Of a stretch of DNA of 64,000 nucleotides, positions 21,141-60,838 are shown piece by piece. The notes beneath the pieces are model-generated. The model did no database searches and was not told where the DNA came from. It was given only the letters and a program-made list of their open reading frames with translations. Location of the stretch: assembly GCA_964016885.1 (NCBI GenBank), contig OZ024740.1, forward strand, positions 376,526,001 through 376,590,000, given 5' to 3'. Every line of letters starts with the position of its first letter. The first letter of the stretch is position 1. Origin of the DNA: Eledone cirrhosa (taxonomy: Eukaryota). The position numbers and the translations under genes are program-made.

Positions 21141-21186
21141 ATTAGCCGACAATGTTTCGTCCTATTAAGGACTCATCAGGGCAATC
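21141..21186 (-). ncRNA. Type I minimal hammerhead ribozyme, canonical core
   Basis: attgcc CTGATGA gtcct taat aggac GAAA c att g TC ggctaat. Confidence 0.92.
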
Positions 21187-22809: not shown

Positions 22810-22854
22810 ATTGCCCTGATGAGTCCTCAATAGGACGAAACATTGTCCGCTAAT
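22810..22854 (+). ncRNA. Type I minimal hammerhead ribozyme (inverted copy)
   Basis: attgcc CTGATGA gtcct caat aggac GAAA c att g TC cgctaat; one stem I mismatch. Confidence 0.88.
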
Positions 22855-22939
22855 AAAAACTTTTGATGTATTAAAGGATTCTTTGTTTTACTCTCTTAAT
22901 ATATATATATATATATACAAAGATATAGATACGCACATA

Positions 22940-23449: not shown

Positions 23450-23597
<148 letters not shown>

Positions 23598-23607
23598 AAC
23601 AAGTAAG

Positions 23608-23701
23608 ACCCCGACGGCTGAGCTCAAGCCGTTTCGACGGCTAATTCTGTACTGAATGTAAATTTATTCTGGTATTTAAATAGCTGAACTTATCAAGGGG
23701 T
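23608..23701 (-). ncRNA. Type I HHR with U3:A8 core and long stem II
   Basis: acccc TTGATAA gttcagcta...(~40 nt)...tagccgtc GAAA cggc ttgagctca gccg TC ggggt. Confidence 0.85.
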
Positions 23702-24880
23702 AATTCCATATATGGTCAAAGAGATAATCACCAGGATTGGTCACATCACAAGTTAGTAGTAAATCTGTGATGGCAAGTTGGTGGGGGAAGGGTAGCTAAA
23801 CCTGCCGGTAGGAGAAAAGGGGAGAGGGGGTGGAGTAGACCCATTCATGCGTTGGTAGTGCCAGCTACAGCTGGGTGTGAGGTCAAAAAGGATACTGGGG
23901 AGGGGGATGGGGAGGAGGTCGAAACGGTAAGTAGAACAAAGGGTAAAACTAAAAGGTTCTGAGAGAGAAAAAAAAAAGAAAGCGAAGTCTGGTTACTAGG
24001 ACTTAAGTCTCACGCTATTGCTAGTCTAAAGAAATACATAAATAAATAAATAAACAAATAAGTGGATAAAAGAATAGATAAATAAATTTTTAAAAAAAAT
24101 ATATATATATATATACTGTAGAATAAAAAAATAAATAATAATAATAGAAATAAACTAGGTGGGACGGAAATAAAGGGACCCTTATACGAGGTATAAGTGC
24201 GTGTATCGTACGGTGACTGATCAACAAAGGGGGGGCAGAATACTAAAGAGACTACCACGAAATAATAAAGGTTTCTACCCCAATCACAGGGCCAGCAACC
24301 ACCCAGTGCAAGAAAGTAAACTAGTACGAGAATATAATTCAGGGTCCCGCAAAAAAATACTAGTGCTAACTCTAAGGGTACCGCCAAGAAACAAAAAGTC
24401 TTATACAAGCTACATGAAAGATCGTACGGAGTAAACATAAAGATCGGAAAATTAATACAGGAACATCCCCCCCCCCCCCCAAAAAAAAGGGAAAAAGAAG
24501 AAATACTGGATAAACGGGAAATTAAAGCAGAGATGCCACTAAGAAATATAGAAGGCACGGAAAAAAGGCGCAGCGGTCGGAGAAGGGGGCGAGTATCCGA
24601 AGTCTAACACCTCTGCTATAAAAAGCGGAGTCAGCCAAATCTATCATAGAATAGGGGAGGGGGGGGTGCTGAAGCTACAAGGGACCGATGGGCTACCTCG
24701 GGTGGGCGAGAAAAAGACGACGACAAAGAAAACGACAAAGAAAAGGAACTGGGGTAGAAGGACTAGGGAGGGATGGGGGAAGGAGGAAATAAAGAGGAAG
24801 CGATAAAGGAATGTAAAAGAAGATCTTACGTCTCCATTGCCAAGCAGGGGTTACCCATTACAAAATAGGCAAGTGGGGTG

Positions 24881-26704
24881 TTATAGCCCTAGTCTACCCC
24901 CACCCCCCACCCCCGGGTCATTATGGGGTTTGAGGGCGAGGTAAGTCCTACGTAATCGGTGTTTACATGCAGTAACCAGTTCATCTTTCTTGTTTAGGAG
25001 TTGGTCCGTCGAAAACAACATTTGTAATGTTTCCTCCGAGCATAAATTGCACGAACGGCGTCCTCCCGTGTAAGAGTTGGTTCTGGACAGTAATTTCCAA
25101 GTGAGATCATAGTTGATGTTGTTGTCCTTGAGGTCCCATATGTGGCCCGAAAGTGTAGTGGCGTGACGCCAGGCCGGGTTTCGGAAGGTATGTCTGTGTT
25201 GGTATAGCCGGGTCTTGAAGTCGCATGCGGTTAATCCTATATAAGCTTTGTTGCAGGTGTCCGTACTAACGTTGCACTGGTAGATCACATTACGGTCTCT
25301 GCATCTGTTGTCGAGGGGGCAACTGGATCTATCAGGACAGTTGCACCTCCTGGTCGGCTCTCCCCTGCTATTTAGGTTGTTTCTTCCATCGGGGTTGAGT
25401 TTTTTGTTGTTGGAGGAGACGATGTTTTGTGCGAAGTTAGGTGTAGTGCTGTAAGAGAGTTTGATGGTATTTTTCTTAATTATTTTGTGGTTGCGGTGTT
25501 GTGGTGGGAAGTGTTTTTCAATGAGCCTAAAGAAAATTTTCCCGATGGGAGTTGTCACCTCGGCGTTGTGGGGAGGATTGAACCATGTTACATTGCGTGA
25601 GCGGCGGTGTCGCCTGCTGGTTCCGCTAATGGGAGCTGGACAGTAGGATATTTCCTCCCGGAAACCACTCCGCTTGAGGGCCTGGTTGTAGTAAGGCGCA
25701 TGTTCATCGAATATCTTCTCATTAGCTGACAAGCGGGATATACGGAGGGAGATGTTTTTGACCAGGTTGTTGGTGATGTTCCTAGGATGGTTAGATCGGC
25801 GGTGGATGTAGTGCAGGTTGTCATTGGGTTTCCTGTATGGGTAGTACAGGTCATTATTGAGATCGAGGGTAACGTCCAGGAAATTAACTCGGGTCAGAGA
25901 CGTTTGTAGGGTTATTTTAAATCCCCAGTCCCGGAAGAAGCTGATTAATTGTTTACGGACCCGATCTGTACTACTGGGGTTGTACCCTTTAAGTGTAAGG
26001 AGCCCATCATCACGGTACAATCCGCCACCGAAATCAGGAAACATATTGGTGAGTTTGGCTATAAGGAATAATCCTATAAGATCTGTGACCTCCGCCGAAT
26101 CCGTAGCGCCTATGCTGACGTCGAAGGGTGAATCAGGAGCTCTTTTTATCCATTTGGAGTTGTCAAAGAGTAAGACTGTCTTCCTGGCGTGGAGGATGAT
26201 TTTTCTTTCCTTGTCGGTGATGGGCACAAATGCTTCGGCGAAGTCCAAGGCGGCAGTAAGTAGCGGTAAGGTGATAGAAGCATAGTAGCTCTCTATGTCG
26301 AACTGGATAAATTTAGTGTCTCGTTTATCCTCCAAATTGCTGAACCATGAGATAAATTCCTGGGTGTTGATCCATAGGCTAAGTCGGGCGTGTTGCTTGA
26401 CTTTTGGTATCACGCGGTCTAGGATTTTTTTGCTGATTCTCCCTATGTCGGATTTCGTTGGGTTTATAAGCCTGATAGATGGTTTACGGTCGAAATCGGA
26501 TATGTGGTCCTTCAGTGTGAAGTAGGGTGTCAGTGGGTCTAGGGGTTCGGTGCGGTCGGCGACCCCGAGGCCGGAGGTAATTTGTTGTCCATCTCGATTA
26601 ATGTCCTCGATCCATGAGTGGTTAGCCTTTTTATAGCTGGAGTTTAGGCTGCTCCTGATCAGTGTATGGTATCTGTCGGGGTTGACAAAGTATAGGTTCC
26701 CAGT
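24881..26704 (-). CDS. PLE reverse transcriptase + GIY-YIG endonuclease (5'-truncated)
   Basis: TLKDH..RLINPTKSDIG, QFDIESYYASI, DVSIGATDSAEV, LYRDDGL, VNFLDVTLDL, CNCPDRSSCPLDNRC, VIYQCNV...YIGLT..FKTRLYQH, CNLCSEE, CKHR. The first ~22 residues of the ORF-track entry come from the TA flank. Confidence 0.95.
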   Translation of the reverse strand, partial: TGNLYFVNPDRYHTLIRSSLNSSYKKANHSWIEDINRDGQQITSGLGVADRTEPLDPLTPYFTLKDHISDFDRKPSIRLINPTKSDIGRISKKILDRVIPKVKQHARLSLWINTQEFISWFSNLEDKRDTKFIQFDIESYYASITLPLLTAALDFAEAFVPITDKERKIILHARKTVLLFDNSKWIKRAPDSPFDVSIGATDSAEVTDLIGLFLIAKLTNMFPDFGGGLYRDDGLLTLKGYNPSSTDRVRKQLISFFRDWGFKITLQTSLTRVNFLDVTLDLNNDLYYPYRKPNDNLHYIHRRSNHPRNITNNLVKNISLRISRLSANEKIFDEHAPYYNQALKRSGFREEISYCPAPISGTSRRHRRSRNVTWFNPPHNAEVTTPIGKIFFRLIEKHFPPQHRNHKIIKKNTIKLSYSTTPNFAQNIVSSNNKKLNPDGRNNLNSRGEPTRRCNCPDRSSCPLDNRCRDRNVIYQCNVSTDTCNKAYIGLTACDFKTRLYQHRHTFRNPAWRHATTLSGHIWDLKDNNINYDLTWKLLSRTNSYTGGRRSCNLCSEETLQMLFSTDQLLNKKDELVTACKHRLRRTYLALKPHNDPGVGGGGRLGL

Positions 26705-26839
26705 TATATATATATATATGAATATAGACATAGAATATTCGAAAATATTCTGTATGTTTATAATAAACATTTTGAAGACCTAATCGCTATAGAATAGAAT
26801 ACGTCACGTATATATATATATATATAGTATTTTTATATA

Positions 26840-26887
<48 letters not shown>

Positions 26888-26891
<4 letters not shown>

Positions 26892-27170
26892 TAATCTACC
26901 TATGCAAGACATATTGTTCATATAAACAAAATGTATATAATAAACATAATTTATAAAAACATTACTTGAATAAAATACATTGACAGATAGATGTATGTGT
27001 ATATATGTGTGCGTGTGTGTACGTATCTATATCTTTATCACGCTCACACGCACACATATATACACATACATCTTTCTGTCAATGTATTTTATTCAAGTAA
27101 TGTTTTTATATATCATGTTTATTATATACATTTTGTTTATATGAACAAGATGTCTTGCATTGTTAGATTA

Positions 27171-27174
<4 letters not shown>
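26888..27174. repeat. Fold-back palindrome; third copy of the arm at 20056-20215
   Basis: aaattaatctac...aaatacattgacaga arm 26888-27018 is inverted at 27047-27174. Confidence 0.85.
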
Positions 27175-27223
<49 letters not shown>

Positions 27224-27323
27224 ACACACACATCTTGTGTACACGCACGTTTGTCTGTGTGTATGTAACTGAAATTTTGAGAAATATGGAAACATCACGT
27301 ATACGATATATTCAATATACATT

Positions 27324-27354
<31 letters not shown>

Positions 27355-29373
27355 ATGAGAGAGAGAGAAAGAGTGAGGGGAAAAAAGAGTGAGGGTGGGC
27401 GTGTATCAGTTTGTGTGTGTTTGTGTTTTTCTGTGCGTGTGTGAATCCTGGGTTCAATCATGGTTAACCGCAGTTAGTAAGGTACGCAATTTATTAGTAT
27501 AGTGCAAACATCACATTTAATATAGAAATGGCTTCACCAAGCTAGAACTTTTTCATTCAAAGGAAATCAACTGGAAAGCCTAATGATGAATCGGTTTCTA
27601 TATAAAATATGATATACATATATATATAAACAATATTGATAACTGAATAGAAAAAGCGAGATTCAATTTGAATGAACATTGCATATAATTTATACATAGG
27701 AGTATAAATTCTCGAATACTAATAGTTTAAATGCATGTTTTAAAATTCATCTGTTTACATAACTATCCTAAATTTGAATATGCCACTATGTAAAATATCT
27801 TCAAAATATGTCGTGATATTTCACAGGAAAAAATGTAATAATATTCAGCTTTATCATTATCGTTAAATCAGGATTTCTAACTTGTTTTATTTTGAAAATA
27901 ACTATGCATCTGGATATATTGTTGCTTTTTACAATTATTATCATCCATCTGTCATGGAAACTGATTATTATATATTCCTGTTCAATGTATTTGTGGCATT
28001 TTTGTATTTTATTCGCTGTGATATATTTCAAATTTCCATGAATAATGAATAATATATATAACAGCATTTCGTTTCGGAAATATCCTGATGTCTGACTCGT
28101 AACCTTGCAGGTTGTCAAGAAAAGTCGTAATTGTATAGATGTATCTAAAATTGGTTCTATGTAATTGTGTAGTATTCAAATTCTATAAATCCTAATTAAT
28201 CAAATTTCAATTTCTGATATGTGTCCATTACCTCAGGAGCCACTTTAAATATCTTCAACGTTTTTGAGACTAGAGATGTGAGAATAGACGTATTGTAATA
28301 TCTACTTAATTTTTCTCATAAACCTATTTGCTGCTGCGTATAGCTTCTCGTTGAAATCTATGCCCACCAATATTTTAGAATCAAAATTTATCCATGTAGC
28401 ACGGTGTGCTGTATCGTACACATTTTAGTCCTGCTCTTATATCCATATATATTAATTTCAGTGCCTATCAGAAATAGTCAGTATTGTGAAAACAATTATG
28501 TATTACGGCATGAAAATCGAAGTAGAATACGATTAGTTTATCACAGAGTGATTTGAAAATATATGTATTGAACTTACCTGACACATAATTATTTTCGAAA
28601 TGATATTGAGTTGAAGGATTTGAAATTTTAAACTTATTGGTTAGAAAATGTTTGGGAGATTTATTATCATTTGCTAATAAAATTTAAGTTGTGCATAGAG
28701 AACCTAGAGTCATCCTGATTGTTTTTTAATATTACTTATAAAATATAGAAAGTTGGAATAAGAAGTTACTCACCGATGCTAGAAATCGAATCCTATTTAT
28801 ATAATCTTTAAGATATAAAATAGAAATTCAAGATTGTAGAAAAAATGCTCATTGCGAGACTGATTAATAAGGAGTTTGATTCAAAATCAGAATTCGTTTG
28901 TTTCGTCAGATCATCTATAGACGTGAGCTCGGTAGTGTAAACCGAGCAATCTTATTCCATCTTAACTTTCCACGAACAATTTATTTAATATTTAACAGAA
29001 ATATAAGATTCGATGTCTAACTTCTGTGAATAAACATTTACTTTGTTTTCGATTCCCATCAAGAAGATATCTTAATGAGATTATATTTAAACATTCTCAT
29101 CTCCAAAGATTTTCTAAGCACCACTCTCATTTTCTAAATACGGATTTGACAATGTATTGCAAGTAAGGAAAATAAGATGGAGATCATTGCAACGCCTCTA
29201 CTCATATATCTGGTATATTAGGGGTGTCTAAGGTCTACAAATTACAACAGCAATAACAACTTATATATATTTCATAGAATGTTTGATCTTTAATGTTTTA
29301 AGCATTAAAACTGTTACATTCATTATACAGATATTTGCAACAATAGATGCCCTATATTAGTGATTTATTTAAT

Positions 29374-29427
<54 letters not shown>

Positions 29428-30645
29428 TGTGTGTGTATGTGTGTGTGTGTGGATGTGGATGTGTGTGTATATGTGTGTGTGTGTGTGTATGTGTGTGTGT
29501 GTGCATTTATTTGCAAAGGTTGTCATTGTATTGATATAATGTTTATAATAGCGTAGTTAGCTATTTTAGCCAATACATTGAGACAATATTTTAGTAAATT
29601 ATTTTACAATAGCTGAAAATTTTAACTAAACTTTTACAATATTGTAATTAATTCTGAATCATAGAATTAATTATATTAAATATTTGTTATATAATTTGCG
29701 CTCATAAATTTATACTCACAAAAGAATTTAATTCACAAAAATGTACGTATTCCCCCGACAATACGTATCTGATACTTTTATCTAAAGTTTAAATGCAGTA
29801 ACCATTTTAATGTTTTAAGTTCAATTACTAATTAAGTTTCATAAACTTTGACAGTCAACATTTCCGTGAAATGAGGCAGCGCAATTCTTATGATATTCGC
29901 GCGGTTAGTGGCAATCGTGGATTATACACAGACCAGAGAACTGGTCCAAATGTGTGCAACAGATTGGACTCAATTCAGATTACCAAAATAACATACGGTG
30001 GTGTAAATCCGGACGATGAATGCAGACTACGACATAAGAAAAAATATCTACAGACTATCTGACGTCGATGGCACAGTTACCTCTACCCAAAAAGACTAAA
30101 AGAATTGCATCTAGCTAAAGCTATGTTAGTCGACATTTGCCAAAGCTACCATGAAAGGATTTTAAGAATAATTCCTTTAACAAATTGCTTTGCTTGCACC
30201 TATATTATTGAAAGATTGAAAGATTCATATATTATTGAAATATTGAAAGATTCAACTTAAAAGAATGAAATTATTCTCTGCCTGTCATATTTTCGCAGAA
30301 ATGATAGAGATGGACAGCGTTTCCACAGCTGAGTTTCACATAGACGCTTTAATATAAAATACTAATGTTTCCACTTTAGAGACATGCATTCAGACGATGT
30401 GGGGAAAAGTGATAGTAAAGATATGGTTATTGTTAGACGGAGTAAGTTAAAATAACATCTGCGTTACTCGAGAATTAAATATAAAACAGTTCTACATTTT
30501 CCGGCATTTTAACACTTTCAATTCCTTTAATCGATTTTGACGTCAATAGTGAGTTCATAATTGACAGAGGTCAAATAACTTCAAGCATATCGAAGTCAAT
30601 TGAAAATATCAATTTGAAACACTAATATTATTAGTGAGAAGATAA

Positions 30646-30872
30646 GAGCGGTACCTTGGCAGTCGCTAGAACGTGTGACAGAATGCTTTGTGGCTTAGAC
30701 ATTCCTTTACGTTCTGAGTTCAAATCCAGCCTGAGCTAGCTTTGTCTTTCATCCTTGCGGGGTCGATAAAATAAAGTACCTCTAACAAGGTGGGGCCGAT
30801 TTAATCGGCTTTCTACACGCCCCCCCCCCCAAAAAAAAAATTGTTGGCCTTGTGCCTAAATCAGAAATCATT
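30646..30872 (+). mobile_element. tRNA-derived SINE
   Basis: ttggcagtcg...ctgagttcaaatcc...tttcatccttgcggggtcgataaaataaagtacc...ttggccttgtgcctaaa. Confidence 0.85.
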
Positions 30873-31505
30873 TTTAGCGAAACGGGACCGATTATTAATA
30901 GTGGTACTGTTAGTTTTTATCCATTTTATGTTATAGGGCATACAGAGCAATGTTTGCTAATAAACAGACAGCCCTCAATTTGACCCAAGTATATGGAGGA
31001 CCGTAACTAAACTCAGCAATTCATGTTATCCAACACTCTCAATATTCTGCGAAACTACCACCTGTAGAAACCACATTAAATTATTGTCTTCATGTCTGAA
31101 AACATACAATGAATGCCTTGACACATTTATAGACATTTTTTTAAATTATCGTTTTGCGTCTCTGCTTCTCACCTTTTGTTTCCTGACACTGTCTGTCGAT
31201 ACTCCCACATTATTGTAGAATATTAATCTCCATATTTAAGGTGTTATAAGTCACACAGTTTGTAAACACCAAGGTTAGGTTTTGTACAAAAACTTCGTCT
31301 AATATATATTGAATAATTTTCTTTGCAATTTGCAAGTAATAATATTCAGTTAATATATAATTATAAATATAAATTTAACTACGAGATCACTGACCACTCC
31401 ACGTAACAGACAAGTAAAACAACAAACTTTTAGGATTTTTTGCTTAGATTTTCTTCTTTTTTTTTGGGGGGGGGGGCTTTGATTGCATGCCCATATATGG
31501 ATTGT

Positions 31506-31601
31506 ACCCCTTGATAAGTTAAGTTAGATTCCCGCCATTCTAATACTGGTGGCTTAGTTCGGATCTAGCTGTCGAAACTGCCAGAGCTGAGCCGTCGATG
31601 T
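31506..31601 (+). ncRNA. Type I HHR with U3:A8 core and long stem II (diverged)
   Basis: acccc TTGATAA gttaagttagatt...ggatctagctgtc GAAA ctgc cagagctga gccg TC gatgt; same architecture as 23608-23701, with stems I and III eroded. Confidence 0.75.
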
Positions 31602-31624
31602 CCCGAGCTTTTCATATATATATA

Positions 31625-31985
31625 TAAAAGAAGTTAATATCCCCACAGGTACTAAGTACCCCTGGAAATATATAGGGTGTCTATGATACAGTGGTATTAA
31701 TTTGACATACCAGAATTATAAAATTGAGATAAGCGGAGCAAGCAAGATTCAAACAATTTTTTTAAATAAATTAAAAAATATAATTTAAATATTTACCTAT
31801 TCCATTTGCTTTTACCGACGGTTTCACTTCACAAACGATTGGAGATCCCTAGGGACTTCCAATCTTTTGTGAAGTGAAACCGTCGGTAAAAGCAAATGGA
31901 ATAGGTAAATATTTAAATTATATTTTTATTTTTTTTATTTTTTTATTATTTGAATGTTGCTTGCTCCGCTTATCTCAATTTTATA
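31625..31985. repeat. Fold-back palindrome containing HHR 3' halves
   Basis: Arms ~31716-31849 and 31852-31985 centred on ccctaggg; each reads gaagtGAAAccgtcggTAaaag; TA flanks. Confidence 0.8.
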
Positions 31986-32089
31986 TATATATATATATAT
32001 ATGCAAAGTAAGATAATAAACAGATACACACAAATACAATACACATGCTGATGATAATGACTAAGATAATGAGAGTTTTCCTGTAGGCC

Positions 32090-32875
32090 TAATTGCACCA
32101 GAAAGCGTTGATATCTTCAGTCAGTGTACAATGTCCATCGCGTATTTCGACCGTCAACCCTAACATCTTCTCGCTAGTAAGAAAGTGCAAGAGTACCTTA
32201 TGGCGCCATTTATATCTCCATCGGGCATCAGCTCATTTACCTACTGATAAAATGTGTGTCATGTTGCAGCTGTTTTCCACAGAGCCTACACGATTTATCC
32301 TCCCTCATGAGGTTCCCGTCAATCCAGGCTCCCTGGATTGCTTGTTCCACAGCCCTTGAGTTTCGCCCTTCCTCCTCCCGGTGCCGACATCATTCGTGAT
32401 TTATGGCTCTCTCCTCCACTTTTGTCTATCTATCCCCATGGTCGGAAATGGGACGTCCCAAGACCTATTTCCGTACATATTATCCGGATGATGCTCCGTA
32501 GCTTCAGCATGTTTTATACTTATGTGACAGAAGCGTCAGATGCCCATTTGCGTTCTGATCTTGTAGTTACTCTTGCCTCTCTCACTTGTGCCTCCTATGA
32601 ATCATTAAACATTATCGTCATGATTGAATGTATTACTTTGAATTCCTCCACTACAGATGACAGAGGAAGCTGAAGCTGTCCTGATCTTATGTAGAGGCCA
32701 ACTTTAGTGAAGCTTGTGGGGATTCCCAACCATTGTTACCGGTATTCGTTGATCTTATTTTCCACTCTCTCCAACCTTGAAGCAGTGACTTTATACACGT
32801 TTAGCAGCCATATGAGTCCCAGCAGCGCACCATGCTGGCAGAGCCAGCTTTTAAGCTACTTTGAAAAAACATTTA
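32090..32875 (-). mobile_element. Degenerate HERO/R2-group LINE fragment
   Basis: WLLNVYKVTASRLERVENKINEYR*QWLGIPTSFTKVGLY..LQLPLSSVVEEFKV and RSERKWASDASV...GLG motifs of the post-RT region. Confidence 0.7.
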
Positions 32876-35800
32876 TGTCGTTGCGACTTCATATCGTTCG
32901 CTCGTCATGAAAAATGTTTTGTCCTTTATTTATATATATGATTTGCTACACCGCAATTATCCGAAAGTTGATAAAAACTAAACATTTCATTCCAAATTCG
33001 TTATAGTTTTGAATCTCTTCGATAGTGTTGTGCCGGATTATTTCAATAGCCACACTGCTTCATCCATATCCATCTTTGTAAAGAATATAGGCATTGCGTT
33101 AAATATAAATAACACGCAAAATGCAATATGTCAGTCCGTGATCGTATTTTTCAAATTTCAAAAACCTGGTATTTTTCTCTTTATATCTATCAATGCAAAT
33201 ATTACAAAATTTGTGCACACACATTCTAACACTGTAAGAAACCCGCTTGGTGTGTGGTTTTCTGCTAGTAGTAAATACATGTAAGAACGCACTAGTAATA
33301 CGAACCTATATATAATTAAGCTGTTGCATGTTCCTATTAGGCACAATTTGATTTAGGCTTTCATTCATCCTCATAGGGCAGTACATTAACTAACAGTGGA
33401 TGTGTTAGTTTGACATGAAAAACTGTCATTATTTGTGGACGAATCTTGAATTTGTATTCTAAACACTGTTAGCATATATCTCGTTTAATCTATTCGGTCT
33501 CCTTTTCTTTTCACCACTCCATTTACCTCTGTGTATGTTTCTATGTATCTGATCTTCTATTTTCATCACATACGTATGAGCATATATTTTTATGAATTCT
33601 TCTGTACGCATTACTTATTTGTTTATGGATTCATATGTATTTATTACGTAGATTTATATGTATTTATTACGTGTTTCTATGTGAATTCGTGTGTATATGT
33701 TCAAATATGCAGTTAACTTTTCTTCTCTGTATATATATGTGCGGGATATCATTTCTACCGACCAAGTGGGTGCCACTGAGACTATCAGTGCATGATTACT
33801 ACGTAATATCTATACAAAAATCTACATGAAACTTTCTATATGTCAAATCATTCAAACTTAACAAATCTTTAAGCAGAAATTGGGCAATAACGAGTAGAAT
33901 TGCTAATCCAATTATAGCTTCTGACTTCGAGGTAGTGTCGTCATACTAATATGAAACATCAAGAAGTGTAACGATTTAAAGACACATTCAAATTATTTAC
34001 AATATTTAATGTGTGTATGTGATTGCTAAGTTGTAATCCCTACTGTTAGAACGTTCAACGCCTTTTGGAAGTTGATCCCATAATTGCCAGTTTTCTATGT
34101 GCATAGTAAACTTGATGAACCTTGTCTTTAACGATAGGAGTTCCAATCGTGCGCATCACGTTACGCATTACGTAATATATTACAGCTCGTACTAAAATAG
34201 TTTGGAATATCAAAAGAGATTACGCCGATACATGTAATAGTTCAAATGGTATCGAAAAGGCTTATAAGGTTAATAGATACTTATACAATATATACTTTAT
34301 AGTTTTAACTGCATGTGAATCTAATTTGCTGTGTTTACGAGAACGTAATATTTGTTTAATAGATAGTGGCGGAATTTGAATTTAGAGAGAGATCGCATTA
34401 GAAATTGAGAATTTATTTCTTAATCCACAATCATTCGTTTACTTCTTTCTACTGTTAGACACAATCAGCATTACATTCAAATACTAATGCAAATTAGTTC
34501 TCACTTGTTTTATACGCTTAATTCAACCGACATCATTTTCATTACCGGACACTTTTCTGTTTAATTTCCTTTGCAAAATCATCATTACATTATCGCTTAA
34601 TATCATTATATTCATCTTTTGCTACCATCACTATCAGCAGCAGTAGGAACATTAGAATTATCATCATTATCATCAACTATTTGGTTTTACTTTGTATTAG
34701 CTTTCTTTTCCATCAACATTTCTTCATCATTCCTTCTTCCTTTCTTCCATTTAGCCATCTAAATTACATGATGCAAATTACATTTCTGCTGTTTGAAGGT
34801 CCACTGATTCACCCTATCTTCCTCGGTATTTATTTATCAATATTGACCATTAATTATATATGTCCATATCTGTAACGAGATATGTTTACAAAAATAGAAA
34901 TGATGTGTTTATTTATTGACCTACTTTTAATTAAATGTTACAATCTTACGTTACATCAGCGGGTGATATTTATGCCCATATGTCCATTAACCATATTTAA
35001 GTGAAAATGAATGAGAACTTTGAAATAATGTGCGTTTAATCAAGTAAATATTCGAAAGATTTTTCACATTTTCATTCGAAAAACATGTATTTATATAATC
35101 TTTCAGGAGGGACAAAGGATTATTTAAATTTCTTTTGAATTGATTGAGAAATGTTTTTCCGGGAGATATTTTAAGAATGGTATATTTATCATATATATAT
35201 ATACTGGTCCAATCATATGGGTAACAATGGATAGTGCAAATCATGTGAAATTCGACAACCTCGTACTGATCTCGTCTAGGTTTTGTTTGTTATTTTGGTA
35301 TAAGTTAAGTCCGAGAAACAATGCTACAAAGACTTATTATAGGAAATGATTTAACACAGTGTCATAGGGCCACCTTTTGTCAGCTCTGTCTGAAACATCG
35401 AATTTCACATTTTTCAATATAAAAGAACTGAAAGGGTACGATTACTGAATTTTGTTCCTCTGCTTTCTCAGTTCACTGTTTGCTTGTATCTCCTTTGCGA
35501 ACATATATATGGGATACATAGAATAGTTACTGATACTATTACGGGAACAAGATTCACGACAAAATTGTGGATATGCACTACCGTAAAGACCGCCAGTATT
35601 TTAATGGCCGCAAATTGGCAGAAATCTTTGGGAATAATCATTTGCTGTGGTTGTTCTCGTTCTATGTGATTTCAGTTCAAATTTATATTTTTTACCCTTT
35701 CGAAATTTGGTGGGATTACGATGTGTATTAAATCATTTGTTCTGTGGTCCTTGCAATATTTGTTCTGTACGTTCTGAAGTAAAACCCCGCTTCCGCTCAC

Positions 35801-37960: not shown

Positions 37961-38394
37961 AGGTACAAATTGATGAAGTATCCAAATATACTTCAGTATT
38001 AAAGGATTACTTTTCCCTAAATTTAAACGACAGAGAGGGGCTTATCTATGACTCCGAGTATCCTCTACTTATGCGCCTCTCATATTTGCACGGATGAAAT
38101 CGCTGAGGCTGGGTAAATCCGAGGGTTTCCTCCTTCCCCCATTCCATTTCCAGAAAAGGCGATTGTAATCGAGTTCAGATTATTTGGAAACACACGAAAC
38201 AAAAACTAGAAAAAATAACTTCATCGGTATTCATAGCGAGTGATTTTATCTAAATTTAAACGTTCTCAGAAGTAACTCCGATGAACCGTACCTCCATTAT
38301 CGGGAAGAGGTGTCGGTGGCTAGTGAGTCGATGTTATATCATTCGATAACAAACGAAAACAAAAACTAGAAAAGGAAACAAAAACTAGAAACGA

Positions 38395-38516
38395 GACTCA
38401 CTCAGATGGTGGATGGGTGCTACTCGAGAATGCTGAGGATGGCTCTGAACATTAATCAGTATACACTGAGGAAGAAAAACTCAGAGCTGTATGGGAGCCT
38501 CCAAAAGGTCAGCTAA
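38395..38516 (+). mobile_element. Short RTE-type LINE fragment
   Basis: Nearly identical to 52984-53090 (QMVDGCYSRMLRMALNINQY). Confidence 0.75.
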
Positions 38517-38660
38517 AATGTAACATATATATGAATTAGTTTTGCGAGGTATTTGATATGAAATCGTGTGTCGAAACAAACATTGTTATACTTGAGGAGG
38601 GTCATATTTGTGTAATATTGCCAGAATTAATAACAGAACACACTCACTGTTTGGTTGGTT

Positions 38661-40395
38661 GAGAATCAGTGAGTGCAACAAAAAGAGGAACCTATCCAAC
38701 TGCATAATAGGCAGCATGGATGTGGTATCACTGTACCCATCCATTAACATCGATTTCGCTGTGGAAAAATGTGTGGAGTTGATCATTGAGAGTGAGGTGG
38801 AGTTCTGCGACGTCGACACACACGAACTGGGCCTCCTACTTAGACTTACATACGACACTGACTACCTAGGCAGCCATGACCTTAGACGTTTCTGCCCTAG
38901 TAGACCCGTAAGAGGTAGACCCCCCCCCCCCCAGCATAACCTCAATGGCAAAAAAGACTCCCATGGGAAGGTGGATTGGGTGGACCAAGCTATACCAACC
39001 CCCCAAAACAATGATCAGCTAAGAAAAATGGTCGCACATGCAATAGGCGCTAGTATCAAAACTACCATAATGGGCCACATATTCAAATTGAACGAGAAGA
39101 TCTACACCCAAAATGAGGGAGCAGCCATTGGCGTTAGCATAGCTGGTGATGTTGCCAAACTTTTCATGGTATGGTGGGAAAGGAGACTTAAAGATCTCCT
39201 TAATGAGAGCTCCATAGACCTCATCATGTACTCTCGTTACGTAGACGATATCAATATAGTTATAAGAACATCCCCACTAGAGAGCCCTAACAAGTTTGAT
39301 TTAGAACGTAGCACAATCGAAAGCATCCAGCAGATAGCTAATTCCATACACCAGAGTATAACTGTAACTATCGACTTCCCTTCCAAACATCCTAACAATA
39401 GACTACCTGTATTAGACACGGAACTCTGGATTAACACTATAGACGAGAGAGCCCAAATTCTCCACTAACACTATACTAAACCCATGGCCTCCAAATACCT
39501 GATACTCAAAAACTCAGCAATGTCCAGTAGTGCTAAGTTTAATATTCTGATCGCAGACTTGGTACGAGTGATGAAGAATGTGTCCCGCATGTGCGACCCA
39601 ACAGAAATGGAAAGACACATCCAACACTTCATCAACCGCATGCAGTTCTCTGGCTACAACCAAAGAGACAGAGTCAGAGTATACGAAGGAGCCATGGAGA
39701 AGTATAAGACCCTCATAGAACTGGACATGAAAGGAATTTGCCCATTATACAGGAGCAAATCATGGAATAGCTTAGATAGGGCTAGACATAAGATAGGGAA
39801 AGCCACCTCATGGTACGACAACCAGAGATACCAGAGTGTCATGTTTGTGGACGCTACCCCTGGAGGGAAATTAGCTAACCAGTGTAGAAAGGCCCTGAGA
39901 AAGACCCACTTAAAGATTAAGGTGGTAGAAAAGCCAGGAACCACCATAAAATCCCTGATCAGCAAAACCTACCCTTTTAAGAAATCCCACTGTACTAATA
40001 GGAAATGTATCATATGTAAGGTAAACCCCCGGATAAACTGTAAAACTAGAAACGTTGTCTATAGCATAAGATGTACAGAGGGTACTTGCAGAAACATGAC
40101 AACAACATACATAGGCGAGACAGCTCGTAGCATAGGTGAAATGATAGACCAACACTGGGAGGAACTAAAAGGACGAAAAAACGGATCAGTACTATACGAA
40201 CATGCCAGACAGCAACACGACGGTAACATAGACAACATAGAAATTAGAATAATATCTAAACATAGAAATGACCCAGCAGATAGGCAAATCAGAGAGGCCA
40301 GTGAAATAGAACTTAGAAGGCCAAGACTAAACAGAAAGAATGAATGGAATAACAACAACACCCAAACAAACAACACTGACCTAAGAGAAGTATAA
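38661..40395 (+). pseudogene. PLE RT + GIY-YIG ORF with one in-frame TAA (39466-39468)
   Basis: GSMDVVSLYPSI, GAAIGVSIAG, YSRYVDDI, RLPVLD, CTNRKCIIC, NVVYSIRC...YIGETARS, RQIREASEI; the two ORF-track segments share a frame. Confidence 0.9.
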
Positions 40396-40641
40396 ATAAA
40401 TAAATAAATAGATAAATAAATAAATAAATACATACACAAGCACAATAACAACAAACACATATAAACACACACTAGTCACCCAATCACCGACACACATCAA
40501 ACAAAACACTATACACACACACAAACGCATGCGCAAAGAAGACAAAATAAAATGAACAAACAAACAAATAAATAAATAAATATATAGACAGACTAAATAA
40601 AAATGGCGTAGACATACAATGCAACGGGGGAAACAATAGCA

Positions 40642-40681
40642 CCACTGACGCTGTTGCAGATGTGCAACGAAAGAACTCTGA
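40642..40681 (+). ncRNA. Degenerate HHR in the PLE 3' UTR
   Basis: ca CTGACGC t gttgca gatg tgcaac GAAA g aa c TC tg; A9 is changed to C. Confidence 0.55.
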
Positions 40682-40876
40682 TAAACTATATATATGTGTT
40701 TGTGTCTATATTGTATCTGTATTATTTTTGACCGCCGGTCAGTCAATGGCAACATTGAGGACCGAATAAATTAGATTACCGATATAAAAGACACAGAAGC
40801 GTAAACCAACCAAACAGTGAGTGTGTTCTGTTATAAATTGTGGCAATATTACACAAATATGACCCTCCCCAATTAT

Positions 40877-40975
<99 letters not shown>

Positions 40976-41575
40976 TACACATACCTATACATAGAAATAT
41001 ACACATATATATATATATACAGTACAAACATATACACAGTTAAGTATATACGTACAAATATACATACACACACATATATATACACATACATATATATATA
41101 CACACACACAATACACACATATACATACTCACATGCATACACACACTTACACGCGCATATACTCTCAACCACACGTATAGGTACATATACACAAATGTAG
41201 GCGTATATACATATATCAAAAAATATAAATACATTCACACACATATACATGAGAAAAAATACATACAACCACATACACATATATATATAAATAATGACTT
41301 ATATATAAAAATATACATACGTACACGCATACGCATATGCACACGTACATACACACATATATATATATATAACTTCAACATATATATATATATAGATATA
41401 TAAAAGTGGAAGGGGTATTCCATAAGTTGGAAATCCGACAAATATAAATAAAAATGTTAATGTTTATAACTAATTTAGAGCACTCGACAGTTTCCTCGAG
41501 TAAATATTCAATGATATTAAATATTTAATTTCTTTGTATATTTATATATATATATATACATACATATATATATAT

Positions 41576-41615
<40 letters not shown>

Positions 41616-41673
41616 TACAAACACATATACATAAACATACATATACACGTGCAATAATTCGACACTCACATAA

Positions 41674-41745
<72 letters not shown>

Positions 41746-41789
41746 AAGTTAAATAAAAGTCAAATGATTAAAATTTAGCTTCGTTTATT

Positions 41790-41844
41790 ACTGCTATATA
41801 TATTTCAGTGACAGCCATCTTTGGCTGTGACCTCTTCAGGCAGT
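41790..41844 (-). ncRNA. Type I HHR (left arm of palindrome 41741-42000)
   Basis: Exact reverse complement of 41897-41951. Confidence 0.88.
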
Positions 41845-41896
41845 TTGAATTAGTATGGTATAGACAAGTACATATGTCTATACCATACTAATTCAA

Positions 41897-41951
41897 ACTG
41901 CCTGAAGAGGTCACAGCCAAAGATGGCTGTCACTGAAATATATATAGCAGT
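41897..41951 (+). ncRNA. Type I HHR with palindromic (TA) stem III
   Basis: actgc CTGAAGA ggtcacagcca aaga tggctgtcact GAAA tatata TA gcagt. Confidence 0.88.
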
Positions 41952-42097
41952 AATAAACGAAGCTAAATTGTAATCATTTGACTTTTATTTAACTATATTT
42001 TACAATACTTCGGAGTAACCAAACCAAACTGCGCACTTCGTGGAGTACTCCAGCCTGCATACTGAGGTGTTGTTAAAACACCAACATAAACTCAAAA

Positions 42098-42132
<35 letters not shown>

Positions 42133-42156
42133 GTATGTACATACACATACATATAC

Positions 42157-42213
<57 letters not shown>

Positions 42214-42228
42214 TACACATACATATAC

Positions 42229-42276
<48 letters not shown>

Positions 42277-42279
<3 letters not shown>

Positions 42280-42460
42280 AACCAGTAAGACCCCGGCAGC
42301 TGAGCTCAAGCCGTTTCGACGGCTAATTCTGGACTAGCCGTCGAAACGGCTTGAGCTCAGCTGTCGGGGTCTTACTGGTTCCTATTACCCACTCTACTAC
42401 CTCAAGTATTGAGTACTTTGGTGCGTTATGGTCCACCTGGTTCCTTACCACATTCCTTCG

Positions 42461-42463
<3 letters not shown>
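42277..42463 (+). mobile_element. Fold-back PLE 3'-end fragment (HHR 3' halves)
   Basis: Same family and layout as 8729-8923; junction gacggctaattctggac|tagccgtc. Confidence 0.85.
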
Positions 42464-42528
<65 letters not shown>

Positions 42529-42741
42529 ATGTCTGTGTGTGTGTGTGTGTAAATAAATCAACCAAAATATACTGTAGTGTCCAATCCGTATGAAGAACTC
42601 AATGTAATCCAAATATCATGAAAAGAGAAGATGTATTCAAAGATTTTTTCGATGAAAATCACAGGAAAACAGAGTCAAGATAAATTAATAAAAACAATGA
42701 ATAAAAACAAAGAAACAGTTCCTTATATTAAAAAAATTCAT

Positions 42742-42861
42742 CATTTTACGATCGTTTCTAGGATATATATGTGTGTGTTGGTATGTATATTATACAGATC
42801 TATGTCATTTTACAAACTATCAGAGGAAATAAACATACCTACACATGCTGTCTTCAGACAT
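42742..42861 (-). ncRNA. Long-stem-II HHR inside palindrome 42684-42994
   Basis: tatgt CTGAAGA cagcatgtgtaggtatg...cataccaacacacacatatatatccta GAAA cgatcg TA aaatg; the inverted arm 42876-42994 repeats only the 3' half. Confidence 0.65.
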
Positions 42862-43368
42862 AAGCAAAATTTGTTCATAGATCTGTATGATATACATACC
42901 ACCACACACATATATATCTTAGAAACGATCGTAAAATGATGATTTTTCAATATAAGGAATTGTTTCTTTGTTTTTATTCATTGTTTTTATTAATATATAT
43001 ATATACATATATACACACACACAGAAATATATATATATATATAAAAGAGGTGGGTGTATGAAGGGTAAGGTAGAAAGTAGGGGAGGGGGGAATATGAGTC
43101 AACAGAATTATAAATAACATAGGACAAAAAAAAATATAAAAGTAGATGAGGGAGAAAAAGAATATATGTGTAAAGCATATATGGGTAAAGAATATATGGA
43201 TTCAGAGAGTAATAATAATCGTAGTGAATGTAAGGCGTATTAAGTAAAGAAGGTGGTTACACACCCACCTCTTTTTTATATATAGATATATACTTCTGTG
43301 TGTATGTATGTATATATATGTATATATATATATCTATATGTATATGTATGTGTATGTATATATATATA

Positions 43369-43427
<59 letters not shown>

Positions 43428-43685
43428 TTATGTGAGTGTGCAATTACTGTGCGTGTATATCTATGTTTATGTATATGTGTTTGTATATGTATGTATATTT
43501 ATATATATATATATATGTGTGTGTGTGTATGTGTGTGTATGTGTGTGTGCGTGAGCTTGTGTGTGTGTGTGTTTATGCGTGTGTGAGATTTTTATATATA
43601 CGTGGTGATGCAAATTTGTTTATATATATGTGGTGATGCAACTTTATGTATGTGTGTATGTGTATATGTGTGTATATGTGTGTAT

Positions 43686-44076
43686 GAGAGATGACCCCTT
43701 AGCCTTTGTCAAGGCAGAATTCTAGGACAAGGAAAACTCTGATATAACACCTGCAACCCTGATGGTATCCAATGATGTTGACTTGCTCTTCTTTTTGGTA
43801 AATATCATCTTGGTTAAGAGAGTGGGACTGGCTTTGTGCAGTGCCTTTGCTCACTATAAAAGCTTCACGGCACAGGCATTGCTTTATATCTGGAGATCTC
43901 TCTGCCCTTGTCGTCACATGGTACCATGGGCCCAGCACTATGTGTCAATAATCGTCACAAGTGTAGTGTTTGTACCAGAGTTTTCAAGTCGCTGGCTGGA
44001 CTAAAACGTCACACTCGTTCAGCGCAACGGTAAGGGTTCTTCTACATGGATATAAAGTAGTGGCCGTACTCGAAAA

Positions 44077-44078
<2 letters not shown>
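43686..44078 (+). mobile_element. Interspersed repeat, copy of 10071-10463
   Basis: Near-identical sequence (gagagatgaccccttagcc...ggccgtactcgaaaacga). Confidence 0.8.
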
Positions 44079-44127
<49 letters not shown>

Positions 44128-44130
<3 letters not shown>

Positions 44131-45465
44131 GTACACACAGTTCAAGAGTAACCAATCTTAAAGAGATAGATGGAGATAGGCGAGGAGATATGAGAGGAGA
44201 GATTGATGAATTAGTTAGAAGCCAAAGCGTAAAGACATGTGCTCAATGTGCAATATGCAGTAGAAATCAGCTAGGTCGCTGGGTTCATGCAGAAGTTAGG
44301 TGCACAGAGCTGGAAATATTCATTAGATCAACAAAATAAGACCACAAATTTCACAAGGAGGACATTATTAAAAGATTGTCAACATATTTTAGTTTGATGT
44401 AAGGAATGTAGAGAATAATAATAATAATAATATTAATAATAATAATGTCCGTTTACAATTCTTTCGCTAGTCCATATAATATTTCTGGATCAAATGACTA
44501 TATATCATAATTGATCTGGTCCAGTTGAAAATAATTAACATATTTAAAAGACAGAGCGGCTCATCAGAACTTCAAAGGAATATAAATTAAAATAATGAGA
44601 GAATGTTACATAATATAATGTTCCATATATTGGTGTTTTACTATGATTCTTGGTTGCATCAGTTGTCAGCCATAATCAAGCAGTATGCATCTGTCGAGGC
44701 TGCATTGTGCGAGATCTGCCTATGGGTAAAAAGATGACTGCCAAACGACATATTTACCTTACTAATTAGAGGGTGGTTTCAGGGGAAGTAACTCCTCGAG
44801 AGATTAGACATTGTGGGTATTTATAGTTAAGTGCTAATTTTTAAATTTTTTAATTGAGAGACAATGTAGGGGAGATAACTTATAATTATCTAAGTTGTTC
44901 ATAGCAATTTAACTTATTAGCTACACGTAAAAATGGGGCTAGATGACTAAGTTAGGTCAAATATTCTATTGGCGAAGGAATTAGCCCTTCGATGTTGACA
45001 GCTAATAGGTACCTCCGTTCTATCGTTAATCGGTAGAGGTCGTGATAGAGTTATGTAATATGCTTCTGTAATACAGAGATCACAAGATTCTCTTCGTCCA
45101 TTGAACGGTTGGGCCCTAGCCACGATATCCCATTTTAGTGAGTGTTGAACGTTGATTAATTTAAGATTTTTAATGAGCCTAGCTAGCGATGTCGAACATC
45201 TGTTGCTAGGGTCTCGGAAAGAAAAAGAGTAGCGTTATAGCGTACCTTAAAAGGGTTAGAGGTAGACCCGATATAAGAGCTGGTATTCGCAGCAGTTTTA
45301 ACCGTGCACCTATAGACTGTAACAATTGTAAGCGGACATTATTATTATTAATATTATTATTATTATTCTCTACATTCCTTACATCAAACTAAAATATGTT
45401 GACTATCTTTTAATAATGTCTTCCTTGTGAAATCTGTGGTCTTGTTTTGCTTAACTAATGAATAT
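44128..45465 (-). mobile_element. 5'-truncated PLE (GIY-YIG only) with inverted 3'-end copy
   Basis: 44965-45323 encodes VYRCTVKT..SSYIGSTSNPFKVRY...LKWDIVARAQPFNGRRESCDLCITE...SCQHR with a frameshift; arms 44316-44460 and 45324-45465. Confidence 0.88.
44451..44570 (-). ncRNA. HHR with ~90-nt structured stem II insertion
   Basis: gtt CTGATGA gc...(internal hairpin cagatcaattatga/tcatttgatccag)...gc GAAA gaattg TA aac; the inverted copy reads aacaattgta, giving a palindromic stem III. Confidence 0.7.
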
Positions 45466-45591
45466 ATATATATATAGAGAGAGAGAGAAAATTGAGGTTG
45501 GTAATGGCACATGGAATATATAAGAGACAGAATACTTTTTTGTGAAAAAACATATAATTTTATAAGGTAAGGAAATAATAAAGGGTATAAA

Positions 45592-45637
45592 AAATGACCG
45601 GTTTCGATGGGTCTGCAAAAGCCATCTTTTCAAATGT
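45592..45637 (-). ncRNA. Minimal HHR, U3:A8 core (left arm)
   Basis: Reverse complement of 45850-45895. Confidence 0.7.
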
Positions 45638-45849
45638 TGATTAATGTTAAGAAAAATTAATAATAAGAAGAGTTAAAATTTGAGATTTGAAAATTCACTA
45701 CCAGAAAGGCACCCAGCAGTCAACGAGCTGCTAACCGAGCTGCTACCAAGATGAAAACTACTGTGAAATCCCGCAATGAATTTTATACTTGACTTTTCAA
45801 ATCTCAAATTTTAACTCTTCTTATTATTAATTTTTCTTAATATTAATCA

Positions 45850-45895
45850 ACATTTGAAAAGATGGCTTTTGCAGACCCATCGAAACCGGTCATTT
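45850..45895 (+). ncRNA. Minimal HHR, U3:A8 core
   Basis: acat TTGAAAA gatgg cttttgcagac ccatc GAAA ccgg TC attt; palindromic ACCGGT stem III, weak stem I. Confidence 0.7.
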
Positions 45896-46029
45896 TTTAT
45901 ACCCTATAAAATTACCTTATAAAATTATATGTTTTTTCACAAAAAAGTATTCTGTCTCTTATATATTCCATGTGTCATTACCAACCTCAATTTTCTCTAT
46001 AACCTTCGTTTTGTGTAGTAAATTACACT

Positions 46030-46113
<84 letters not shown>

Positions 46114-46285
46114 GTATATATTTGTATGTATATATATATATATAAATATACAAAGATATTAAATATTTAATATCATTGAATATTTACTCCAGGAAACTGT
46201 GGAGTGCTCTAAATCAGTTATACACATTCATATTTTTATTTATATTTGTCGGATTTCTAACTTATTGAATACCCTTCCACTTTTT

Positions 46286-46359
<74 letters not shown>

Positions 46360-46630
46360 CGTATGTACGTGTACATATGCGTATGTGTGTATGTATGTAT
46401 ATTTATATATATAAGTAATTATTTAATTTTATATGTCTGTGGTTGTATGTATTTTTTCTCATGTATATGTGTGTGTGAATGTATTTATATTTTTTTATAT
46501 ATGTATATACACCTATATTTGTGTATATGTACCTATACGTGTGGTTGAGAGTAATATGCGTGTGTATGTGTGTGTATGCATATGAGTATGTATATATGTG
46601 TACTGTATATATATATATATATATATATAT

Positions 46631-47830
46631 AGGTGGAAAAGTAAGAAATCCGAGAACTGACCGTTAATACATGTTTATTTAAAACAGCACCTACGTGCGT
46701 TTCGCCTGGTTGGGCTTCTCAAGGGCATAAATAACCAGAAGTTTTCCTTTCATGGCCTGGAAACTGTTTTGGGGAGTACGTTTACGTCATAGTTCATTCT
46801 TCGTAAAAAAGCGTGTTTTGATTTTGCAGTAGGCCAAGGGAGGTAACTCTGGCCGGTGTTAGGGCAGTCTTTTCCGGACAAATTTTTTATCCGTTACAAG
46901 ATGTGGTTACAACCTTACCATTGTCAATACGCACATGGTCAGGTAATCAACGCTTACTTTGAGACGTTTGTTCGCTGCACCTGCCCGCCTGGGTCATTTG
47001 AAGCTGGGTCTGGGATGCATGGTTAGTTTCCTGGATGTTTTTTGCAGCGCCTTCTCACCGGGGTGTTAAAGCTTGTTGCAGGGAGACCCGCTACATGGTT
47101 TCACTCCTTAACCTTATCCAATCTGAAGAAGGATATTTTTAAGCGATGGGTACAGCTTATCGTCGTTTTTGCTCTGCTGTTGATGAGCTCGTGGGGTGCA
47201 GTTATGATGTGGTAGAGCTCCATGAGGCAAAGATCGCACTTCCTCTTGGAGTAGTACGGTGCAGCCCTGCCGACAATATCCCAGTGCGTGGAGAAGCTGA
47301 TGTTTAAGTCTTTTAATGATGTGATGTATTCCGTGAGCGAAGTGGAGTGTCTTAATTTCTTATTTGTGAAAGAGTGGAGATGTTTTCGAAATCTAATTTT
47401 GAACGGGCCAGGGGTAGCCCCTATATAATGTTTAAACGCTATTGTGGTTAGTTACAGTGCACCTATATATAACTCTATCAGTCAAGCAGTATCTTCTAAG
47501 GGGCAGCCTCCCCTGCCGCGGCAGTTGCAATTTCTGTCACGGTTCCTTCTAATTCCCACGGTGAGGCTATCATTATTGCTATCTACGTTGTTATCTACGC
47601 TCCCGCACCTGTCGTTAGCATTATAACCCACTGTGCGCGGGGTGGTACGATTATTATTCCGCACGTCATGTCCTGCATGTTTTCTAGTCATGTCGCGGTT
47701 ATGGTGGTTGCGTCTATAGAGGCTGTTGCCAGCACTATTGGATGCTGCTAGGGAGTCGTTAAGGCCGATATATTTATTGTCAGGTGTAGGTGCGTTTGTG
47801 CTAGGGTGCTTTGTCTTGCTGATCTTACAA
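46631..47830 (-). mobile_element. 5'-truncated CxCx5C-type PLE (linker + GIY-YIG, frameshifted)
   Basis: RNCNCRGRGGCPL, VIYRCTV, HYIGATPGPFKIRFRKH, HWDIVGRAAPY..KCDLCLME, SCTHR; 3' end at (TA)n. Confidence 0.88.
46687..46726 (-). ncRNA. Minimal HHR, U3:A8 core
   Basis: gccc TTGAGAA gcc caacca ggc GAAA cg ca cg TA ggtgc. Confidence 0.78.

Positions 47831-60807: not shown

Positions 60808-60837
<30 letters not shown>

Positions 60838-60838
<1 letters not shown>

Follow-up and report, generated by a model that had tools for sequence, protein, structure and literature searches.

A 64-kb stretch of the Eledone cirrhosa genome (contig OZ024740.1; hereafter the window) contains five hammerhead ribozyme motifs associated with Penelope-like elements (PLEs). 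The motifs carry uridine at core position 3 and adenosine at core position 8 (U3:A8) in place of the canonical C3:G8. In the window sequence the core reads TTGATAA in two motifs, TTGAAAA in two and TTGAGAA in one, and each core is followed by a stem II with a G10.1-C11.1 closing pair, GAAA, stem III, and GUC or GUA. All five have the type I hammerhead core N3-UGA-N7-N8-A9 ... GAA with the A15.1-U16.1 pair and H17, and positions 3 and 8 form a Watson-Crick pair in 5/5. The places, cores and structural parts reported in an earlier, sequence-only reading of the window are confirmed.

With positions 3 and 8 left open, a descriptor recovered four of the five motifs in the window, missing the one at 31506, which has damaged stems and is plain by eye. 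The same descriptor found four C3:G8 hammerheads, at 21179, 22816, 41839, and 41902. The Rfam scan of the window is dominated by microsatellite miRNA (microRNA) matches, and none of the five U3:A8 motifs appears as Hammerhead_1 among the 150 matches listed out of 269. Two C3:G8 hammerheads from family D, which serves here for comparison, score 32.6 and 31.7 bits with a gathering cut-off of 34.

The sequence-only reading had counted four sequence-distinct, independent loci among these motifs, but the five belong to three families, for which we will use the terms A, B, and C. The motifs at 23608 (A1) and 31506 (A2) are identical at 67/101 alignment columns, and the A1 and A2 endonucleases fall in one clade (support 100/99); they are sister subfamilies, of which A2 is the older. 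The motifs at 45592 and 45850 are identical at 50/50 bases and form one inverted pair (family B), and the motif at 46687 represents family C. DNA searches found many copies of each motif across the 3.0-Gb genome. Young A1 copies are 98.7% identical to one another. The window copies at 31506 and 46687 are decayed relative to their families; the latter has lost the ACGUACGU palindrome of family C. The family A motifs at 23608 and 31506 are larger than minimal hammerheads, with a stem III of 5–6 bp and a long stem II.

The hammerheads lie behind the endonuclease match on the same strand, at a distance of ~1.19 kb in A1, ~0.38 kb in C, and 0.95–1.33 kb in B. The A1 element is unbroken from the hammerhead into the open reading frame at 24881-26779, and other copies are likewise. 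The earlier placement of two motifs (23608 and 46687) behind PLE bodies with a CxCx5C linker therefore holds. Families A, C, and D share this linker together with CxxC and CxH around the end of the endonuclease, which is the definition of the Hydra clade given by Craig et al. (2021, PMC8557442). (TA)n marks the end of the A1 and A2 copies and of the window C copy. Judged by these motifs rather than by a reference tree, families A, C, and D are Hydra-type. The A1 and C proteins gave no Pfam match. The family D element L259 is full length, with 1,033-nt direct repeats that each carry the hammerhead and a 915-amino-acid (aa) open frame in which DKT and RWR (RWK being the Hydra clade motif) can be recognized by eye; the A1 copy does not have that region. 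Family D is young, its copies being 99% identical (window 21095-22900 and L259).

Family B has a different architecture. In the copy L131, a Cx4Cx2C linker, in agreement with the Cx2-5CxxC form of the Neptune clade, precedes a C-terminal GIY-YIG endonuclease (E = 0.00024, just under the Pfam cut-off), and the protein is 23% identical to the A1 protein. The linker and the placement of the endonuclease suggest that family B is Neptune-like, an assignment made on these features and not on a reference tree. By comparison, Naiads have the same linker as Neptune but carry the endonuclease in front (PMC8557442). No same-strand pair of hammerheads, as expected of direct terminal repeats, was found for families A, B, or C among the loci examined, which were mostly 3–10 kb and truncated or inverted.

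The sequence-only reading had also suggested that U3:A8 is a signature of the Hydra lineage. Families A and C, which are Hydra-type and U3:A8, agree with this suggestion. On the other hand, family B and two relatives carry U3:A8 with a Cx4Cx2C linker, the Hydra-type families D and L132/L172 are C3:G8, all 26 Hydra rows in File S2 of Craig et al. are C3:G8 (26/26, PMC8557442), and the published U3-A8 case is in Cercyon elements (PMC4209133). A marker of the Hydra clade is therefore very improbable; it is refuted clade-wide and valid for single families only. U3:A8 belongs to individual families, and these come from at least two PLE types. Families A and C may have acquired U3:A8 separately, but the endonuclease tree, in which the deep nodes lack support (26/23), does not show this.

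Table 1. Hammerhead motifs and carrier elements in the window
Feature	Position	Strand	Remarks
Family A1 type I hammerhead	23608..23701	-	Core UUGAUAA 23696-23690; stem II long; stem III of 6 bp, its loop palindromic
Predicted cut of the A1 hammerhead	after C17 at 23613	-	
Family A1 Hydra-type PLE, 5'-truncated	23596..26779	-	(TA)n end at 23596; homology with other copies 23596 to ~26430
Open frame, 632 aa stop to stop	24881..26779	-	Reverse transcriptase (RT)-like part, CxCx5C linker, endonuclease with CxxC and CxH; no Pfam match
Family A2 hammerhead	31506..31601	+	Core UUGAUAA 31511-31517; C17 at 31596; stems I and III damaged in this copy
Lone terminal-repeat fragment holding the A2 hammerhead	~31372-31613	+	
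Family B minimal hammerhead	45592..45641	-	Core UUGAAAA 45633-45627; palindromic ACCGGU replaces stem III; C17 at 45596
Family B minimal hammerhead, identical inverted copy	45846..45895	+	Core 45854-45860; C17 at 45891
Family B inverted terminal-repeat pair	~45489-46033		Body (Cx4Cx2C linker, GIY-YIG) known from other copies only
Family C minimal hammerhead	46687..46726	-	Core UUGAGAA 46722-46716; A17 at 46692
Family C Hydra-type PLE, decayed 3' part	46633..47828	-	Endonuclease remnant 47104-47538
Family D hammerhead (comparison)	21141..21187	-	Canonical CUGAUGA core; Hydra-type family
Family D C3:G8 hammerhead, inverted second copy	22808..22854	+	400-nt inverted repeat 21095-21494 / 22501-22900

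The state of positions 3 and 8 was counted in the best 40–46 matches per family from the DNA searches, 30 loci each being used for core rows; these rows come from the best-scoring matches and are biased toward the query. U3 and A8 are found together in 35/35 anchored A1 rows (the other 15/50 are 3'-half fragments or partial matches without the core), in 39/39 family B rows, and in 33/33 family C rows. C3:G8 occurs in 0/37 A2 rows, of which two have G8 (by eye). To offset the query bias, further patterns were run with positions 3, 7, and 8 open. Family A had 2,676 matches, and the first 100 comprise 77 U3A8, 19 C3A8 (17 of them CUGAGAA), 3 U3G8, and 1 C3G8. For a Neptune-like relative of family B (177 matches), the first 100 are 89 U3A8, 9 U3G8, 2 C3A8, and 0 C3G8 (by eye). 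For a subfamily of family C (222 matches), the first 100 are 98 U3A8, 2 C3A8, and 0 G8 (by eye), with position 7 being G in 73, U in 25, and A in 2.

Across the genome, a tight pattern that fixes G10.1, C11.1, and C15.2 gave 28,310 U3A8 matches (602 in the reversed control), 13,868 C3G8 (236), 408 C3A8 (222), and 367 U3G8 (183). The U3:A8 motifs are beyond chance because of this excess over the control and because each has many genomic copies. The mismatched matches are mostly single-change copies of paired families. A less strict scan covered 98 stretches of 10 kb at even spacing (980 kb) and found 109 matches, compared with 12 in the control: 70 C3G8, 16 U3A8, 6 U3G8, 3 C3A8, and 14 others. 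Twelve of the 13 multi-copy clusters in this sample have a paired majority (10 C3G8, 2 U3A8) and one is mixed. The idea that U3:A8 is commoner than C3:G8 genome-wide was dropped, as its ~2:1 lead is an artefact of the tight pattern; the looser 980-kb scan above (70:16) and another one (65:14) favour C3:G8. That searches restricted to CUGANGA miss such motifs, as the sequence-only reading had warned, is borne out by the 16 U3A8 matches beside 70 C3G8 in the 980-kb sample.

The possibility that the motifs are C3:G8 hammerheads that decayed independently can be addressed with these counts. Decay often turns C into T and G into A, and several window copies have damage at other positions. Nevertheless, essentially all A1, B, and C copies share U3 and A8, and C3:G8 is found in only 1/100 listed matches in family A and 0/100 listed in both the B relative and the family C subfamily. 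A C3G8 family consensus with frequent single mismatches, which would be the mark of random decay, is not what A1, B, and C show, as all three are U3/A8. Independent decay is refuted by these family counts and by the large excess of paired over mismatched states in the genome counts (28,310 + 13,868 compared with 408 + 367), and we give it next to no probability. U3:A8 is the norm in A1, B, and C. The earlier argument that the double change reflects selection and not decay stands to this extent, but not as a strict constraint on the pair in each family, in view of a CUGAGAA subfamily described below. Across families, the 3:8 pair appears to be under real but loose selection.

The commonest U3:A8 family by the tight pattern (L263-L288) has a UUGAAAA core, a 4-bp stem II, and the ACCGGU palindrome; a Neptune-like endonuclease lies upstream in L257 and L264, and close inverted pairs are frequent. 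Retrozyme-like tandem arrays with one hammerhead per unit were also seen (C1:6519941-6521556, C1:5738326-5752444, L211, and L216), with periods of 316 nt for a U3:A8 core and of ~466 nt and 310 nt for C3:G8 cores.

The predicted folds differ between families. Family A has three helices with an open helix I, while family B has only two contiguous pairs in stem I. When the hammerhead fold is enforced, typical family A copies (L002, L038, and L375, representing A1, A2, and older A) lie 0.8–1.1 kcal/mol above the minimum, the window A1 copy 3.2, L216 4.4, and the window A2 copy 8.7 kcal/mol. The word AGCCGUC is repeated on both sides of GAAACGGCU in family A (window 23608-23701, minus strand), and the resulting competing hairpin, which is the predicted minimum-energy fold of the window A1 copy and of L216, could sequester the core. 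For the B and C monomers the enforced fold lies 6–9 kcal/mol above the minimum. The palindrome that stands for stem III self-pairs with -8.3 kcal/mol in B, -9.8 in a typical C copy, and -3.1 in the window C copy. This self-pairing agrees with the dimer model put forward by Cervera and De la Pena (2014, PMC4209133). From these models we infer that B and C would need two copies to pair up for helix III, and that family A could fold as a single copy. Among 25 distinct family A rows, 87.6% of the cells pair, 3/9 stem II pairs are changed on both sides, and the covariation score is reached by 2/500 shuffles.

In the hammerhead reaction, G12 acts as the base; the acid is the 2'-OH of nucleotide 8, which the 3:8 pair keeps in place. 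PMC9901934 touches on this chemistry. We consider it likely that the hammerheads in the terminal repeats of the three PLE families, in which U3:A8 is the norm, cut their own transcript after GUC or GUA and release the element RNA from read-through RNA. The observed basis for this proposal is the motifs themselves, their place behind the open reading frame, and the family-wide U3:A8. U3:A8 would stand in for C3:G8 as the pair positioning the 2'-OH of nucleotide 8, probably with a slower reaction, judging from hammerhead chemistry. The cut would fall near the 3' end of the element transcript (17 nt from the end in the window A1 copy) and would separate the element RNA from read-through or tandem transcripts, in line with the proposal of Cervera and De la Pena (PMC4209133). 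Selection would act on master copies and not on inserted copies, most of which decay.

Several observations weigh against self-cleavage, which for these motifs is a prediction from sequence and models. In one pairwise scan of mutations, activity was restored by the G3:C8 swap only, and every other single or double core mutant had low activity (PMC9901934). In vitro, the minimal PLE hammerheads of metazoans show poor cleavage (PMC4209133). The unconstrained folds of the window copies are other than hammerhead and are not unusual compared with shuffles (z -0.66 to -1.44), and 3/5 family A covariation measures fail against shuffles (49, 447, and 482 of 500) while 2/5 clearly beat them. A few families with high copy numbers make up most of the genome counts. 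Finally, the listed matches of family A include the 19 C3A8, 3 U3G8, and 1 C3G8 copies, and those of the Neptune-like relative the 9 U3G8 and 2 C3A8 copies noted above. With regard to rate, natural U3-A8 covariation of the core has been described, and such variants are said to be active in vitro with reference to Przybilski and Hammann 2007 (Perreault et al. 2011, PMC3088659). Because activity in vitro is stated there but the scan found no rescue (PMC9901934), the U3:A8 form is likely a slower ribozyme.

The CUGAGAA copies of family A (L216:1897-1990 on the plus strand, L220, and L353-L369) form a subfamily with no Watson-Crick 3:8 pair. Forty short stretches were picked by core, of which 37 yielded rows (all but L351, L367, and L377), for 60 rows with the earlier loci. 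After removal of the core columns and of eight long-branch or partial rows, a tree of 52 rows and 216 columns was rooted on A2. It forms a ladder from UUGA(A/C)AA subfamilies through CUGAGAA, over three starred nodes, to UUGAGAA and the young A1 UUGAUAA. Successive nodes spanning the CUGAGAA stage have support values of 96/90, 99/96, and 100/99, and the CUGAGAA copies are a grade between older and younger U3:A8 subfamilies. Approximately unbiased (AU) tests reject a single clade of the C3/G7 rows (p = 0.0005) and a single clade of A1 with the older U3:A8 rows (p = 0.00001); the groups for these tests were named after the first tree, and recombination between subfamilies is a possible confounder. 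The master lineage of family A thus appears, on these sequences, to have spread for a time with C3.A8 and then returned to U3:A8. At the old end of the family, all four copies examined (L387, L388, L389) with an A2-like stem II start and a GAUCA or GAUUA continuation are U3.G8. These loci were chosen for U3.G8, yet both GAUCAUUA rows in the family A listing are also U3.G8, and an old U3.G8 wobble subfamily possibly existed.

The CUGAGAA grade weakens the case for a strictly selected 3:8 pair; a register shift that pairs C3 with G7 would remove this objection. In a rival explanation, the hammerheads would be passengers, with a core that drifts in master lineages, transposition independent of cutting, and U3:A8 as a frozen inherited state. 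The passage of family A through CUGAGAA over several well-supported nodes is consistent with this, as are the reports that Naiad PLEs without canonical hammerheads still proliferate and the suggestion of Craig et al. that hammerheads may parasitise PLEs (PMC8557442). Yet paired 3:8 states dominate across families, and family A came back to U3:A8. In family C, position 7 and the loops vary, but positions 3 and 8 do not. In family A, U4, G5, A6, A9, G10.1, G12-A14, and C17 are invariant in 26/26 rows, although U4, G5, A6, A9, and G10.1 are fixed by the search pattern. We regard the passenger explanation as unlikely, though it keeps a real minority share.

Another explanation is that CUGAGAA is itself active in a shifted register, in which C3 would pair with the position-7 G acting as G8 and a spare A would lie between A9 and G10.1. 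G7 is present in 17/19 C3A8 matches; on the tree, C3 arises in a G7 background, and U3 is back (UUGAGAA, L384) before G7 is lost. An extra nucleotide separating 9 from 10.1 is also common in PLE hammerheads (PMC4209133). All of this comes from a single lineage, so the C3-G7 link may be shared ancestry. Moreover, the family C subfamily has G7 in 73/100 listed copies but C3 in only two, and no second CUGAGAA subfamily was found among its first 100 of 222 matches. A shifted register would require loss of the N7 spacer, for which our literature search found no precedent. A protonated C.A wobble is a simpler alternative. We consider the shifted register quite unlikely. We also put forward, tentatively and as unlikely, that one PLE lineage walks its 3:8 pair from U3.G8 (old) to U3:A8, CUGAGAA, and again U3:A8. 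The CUGAGAA stage would then be active with an undescribed core, in which either the C3.A8 mismatch is tolerated or a C3:G7 register lacks the N7 spacer.

The favoured explanation, self-cleavage by U3:A8 hammerheads, has close precedents. The sequence-only reading left open whether a PLE-linked U3:A8 class had been described; it is explicit in Cervera and De la Pena (2014), who found the U3-A8 variant in Cercyon PLEs of Schistosoma mansoni with ~1,300 matches (PMC4209133). The E. cirrhosa motifs resemble Cercyon in the U3-A8 covariation, in being type I hammerheads in PLE terminal repeats, in occurring mostly as single motifs or inverted pairs, and in the palindromic stem III remnant. They differ from it in their carriers, which are Hydra-type and Neptune-like elements with an endonuclease, in their number (tens of thousands), and in the complete stem III and long stem II of family A. 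Perreault et al. report the same base-pair swap in nature, and the part of their paper available to us mentions no tie to PLEs and no C3.A8 lineage (PMC3088659). Hydra clade PLEs are, like families A and C, short elements with the CxCx5C linker, CxxC and CxH, (TA)n insertion, and a hammerhead near the 3' end, but in contrast to the C3:G8 rows of File S2, families A and C are U3:A8 (PMC8557442). The Drosophila virilis Penelope hammerhead shares the 2-bp helix I and palindromic stem III of family B, with no U3:A8 reported for it in the available part of the source (PMC4209133). Our literature searches found neither U3:A8 in Hydra-type PLEs nor a CUGAGAA core, though Luense et al. (PMC5785218) or Przybilski and Hammann 2007 (PMC1986816) may cover C3.A8 or shifted cores. 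The U3:A8 swap is therefore already in the literature (2011; in PLEs, 2014). The present families extend it to Hydra-type and Neptune-like carriers, and the apparent C3.A8 stage of family A is the one point that stands out as new.

The extension of a published variant to these PLEs is useful for annotation and introduces no new kind of system; a sizeable share of E. cirrhosa hammerheads is lost to searches with CUGANGA only. The family A ladder matters more. It provides natural sequences for asking whether the spread of a PLE depends on cutting by its hammerhead, a question that Craig et al. raise (PMC8557442), and it also bears on the crossing of a compensatory pair via a mismatched intermediate.

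The window holds further features. Family A stubs with the 3' half of the hammerhead only lie at 3299-3343, 8743-8830, 20257-20302, 42290-42370, and 60826-60886; such stubs are often inverted pairs between (TA)n runs and may be a non-autonomous derivative. Two head-to-head C3:G8 hammerheads, which together make a palindrome, occupy 41788-41953, with CUGAAGA cores at 41839 (minus) and 41902 (plus). A fourth, decayed Hydra-type endonuclease remnant is located at 44947-45320 (minus), within 44410-45320, and is followed by an apparent decayed CUGAUGA hammerhead near 44568-44440 with a stem II of ~100 nt (by eye). Other retroelement remnants are a PLE fragment with GIY-YIG between the arms of a 211-nt inverted repeat at 6729-7610 (minus), a pair of RT and endonuclease-like frames at 38596-40395 (plus), and a non-LTR (non-long-terminal-repeat) RT remnant at 57185-58931 (minus).

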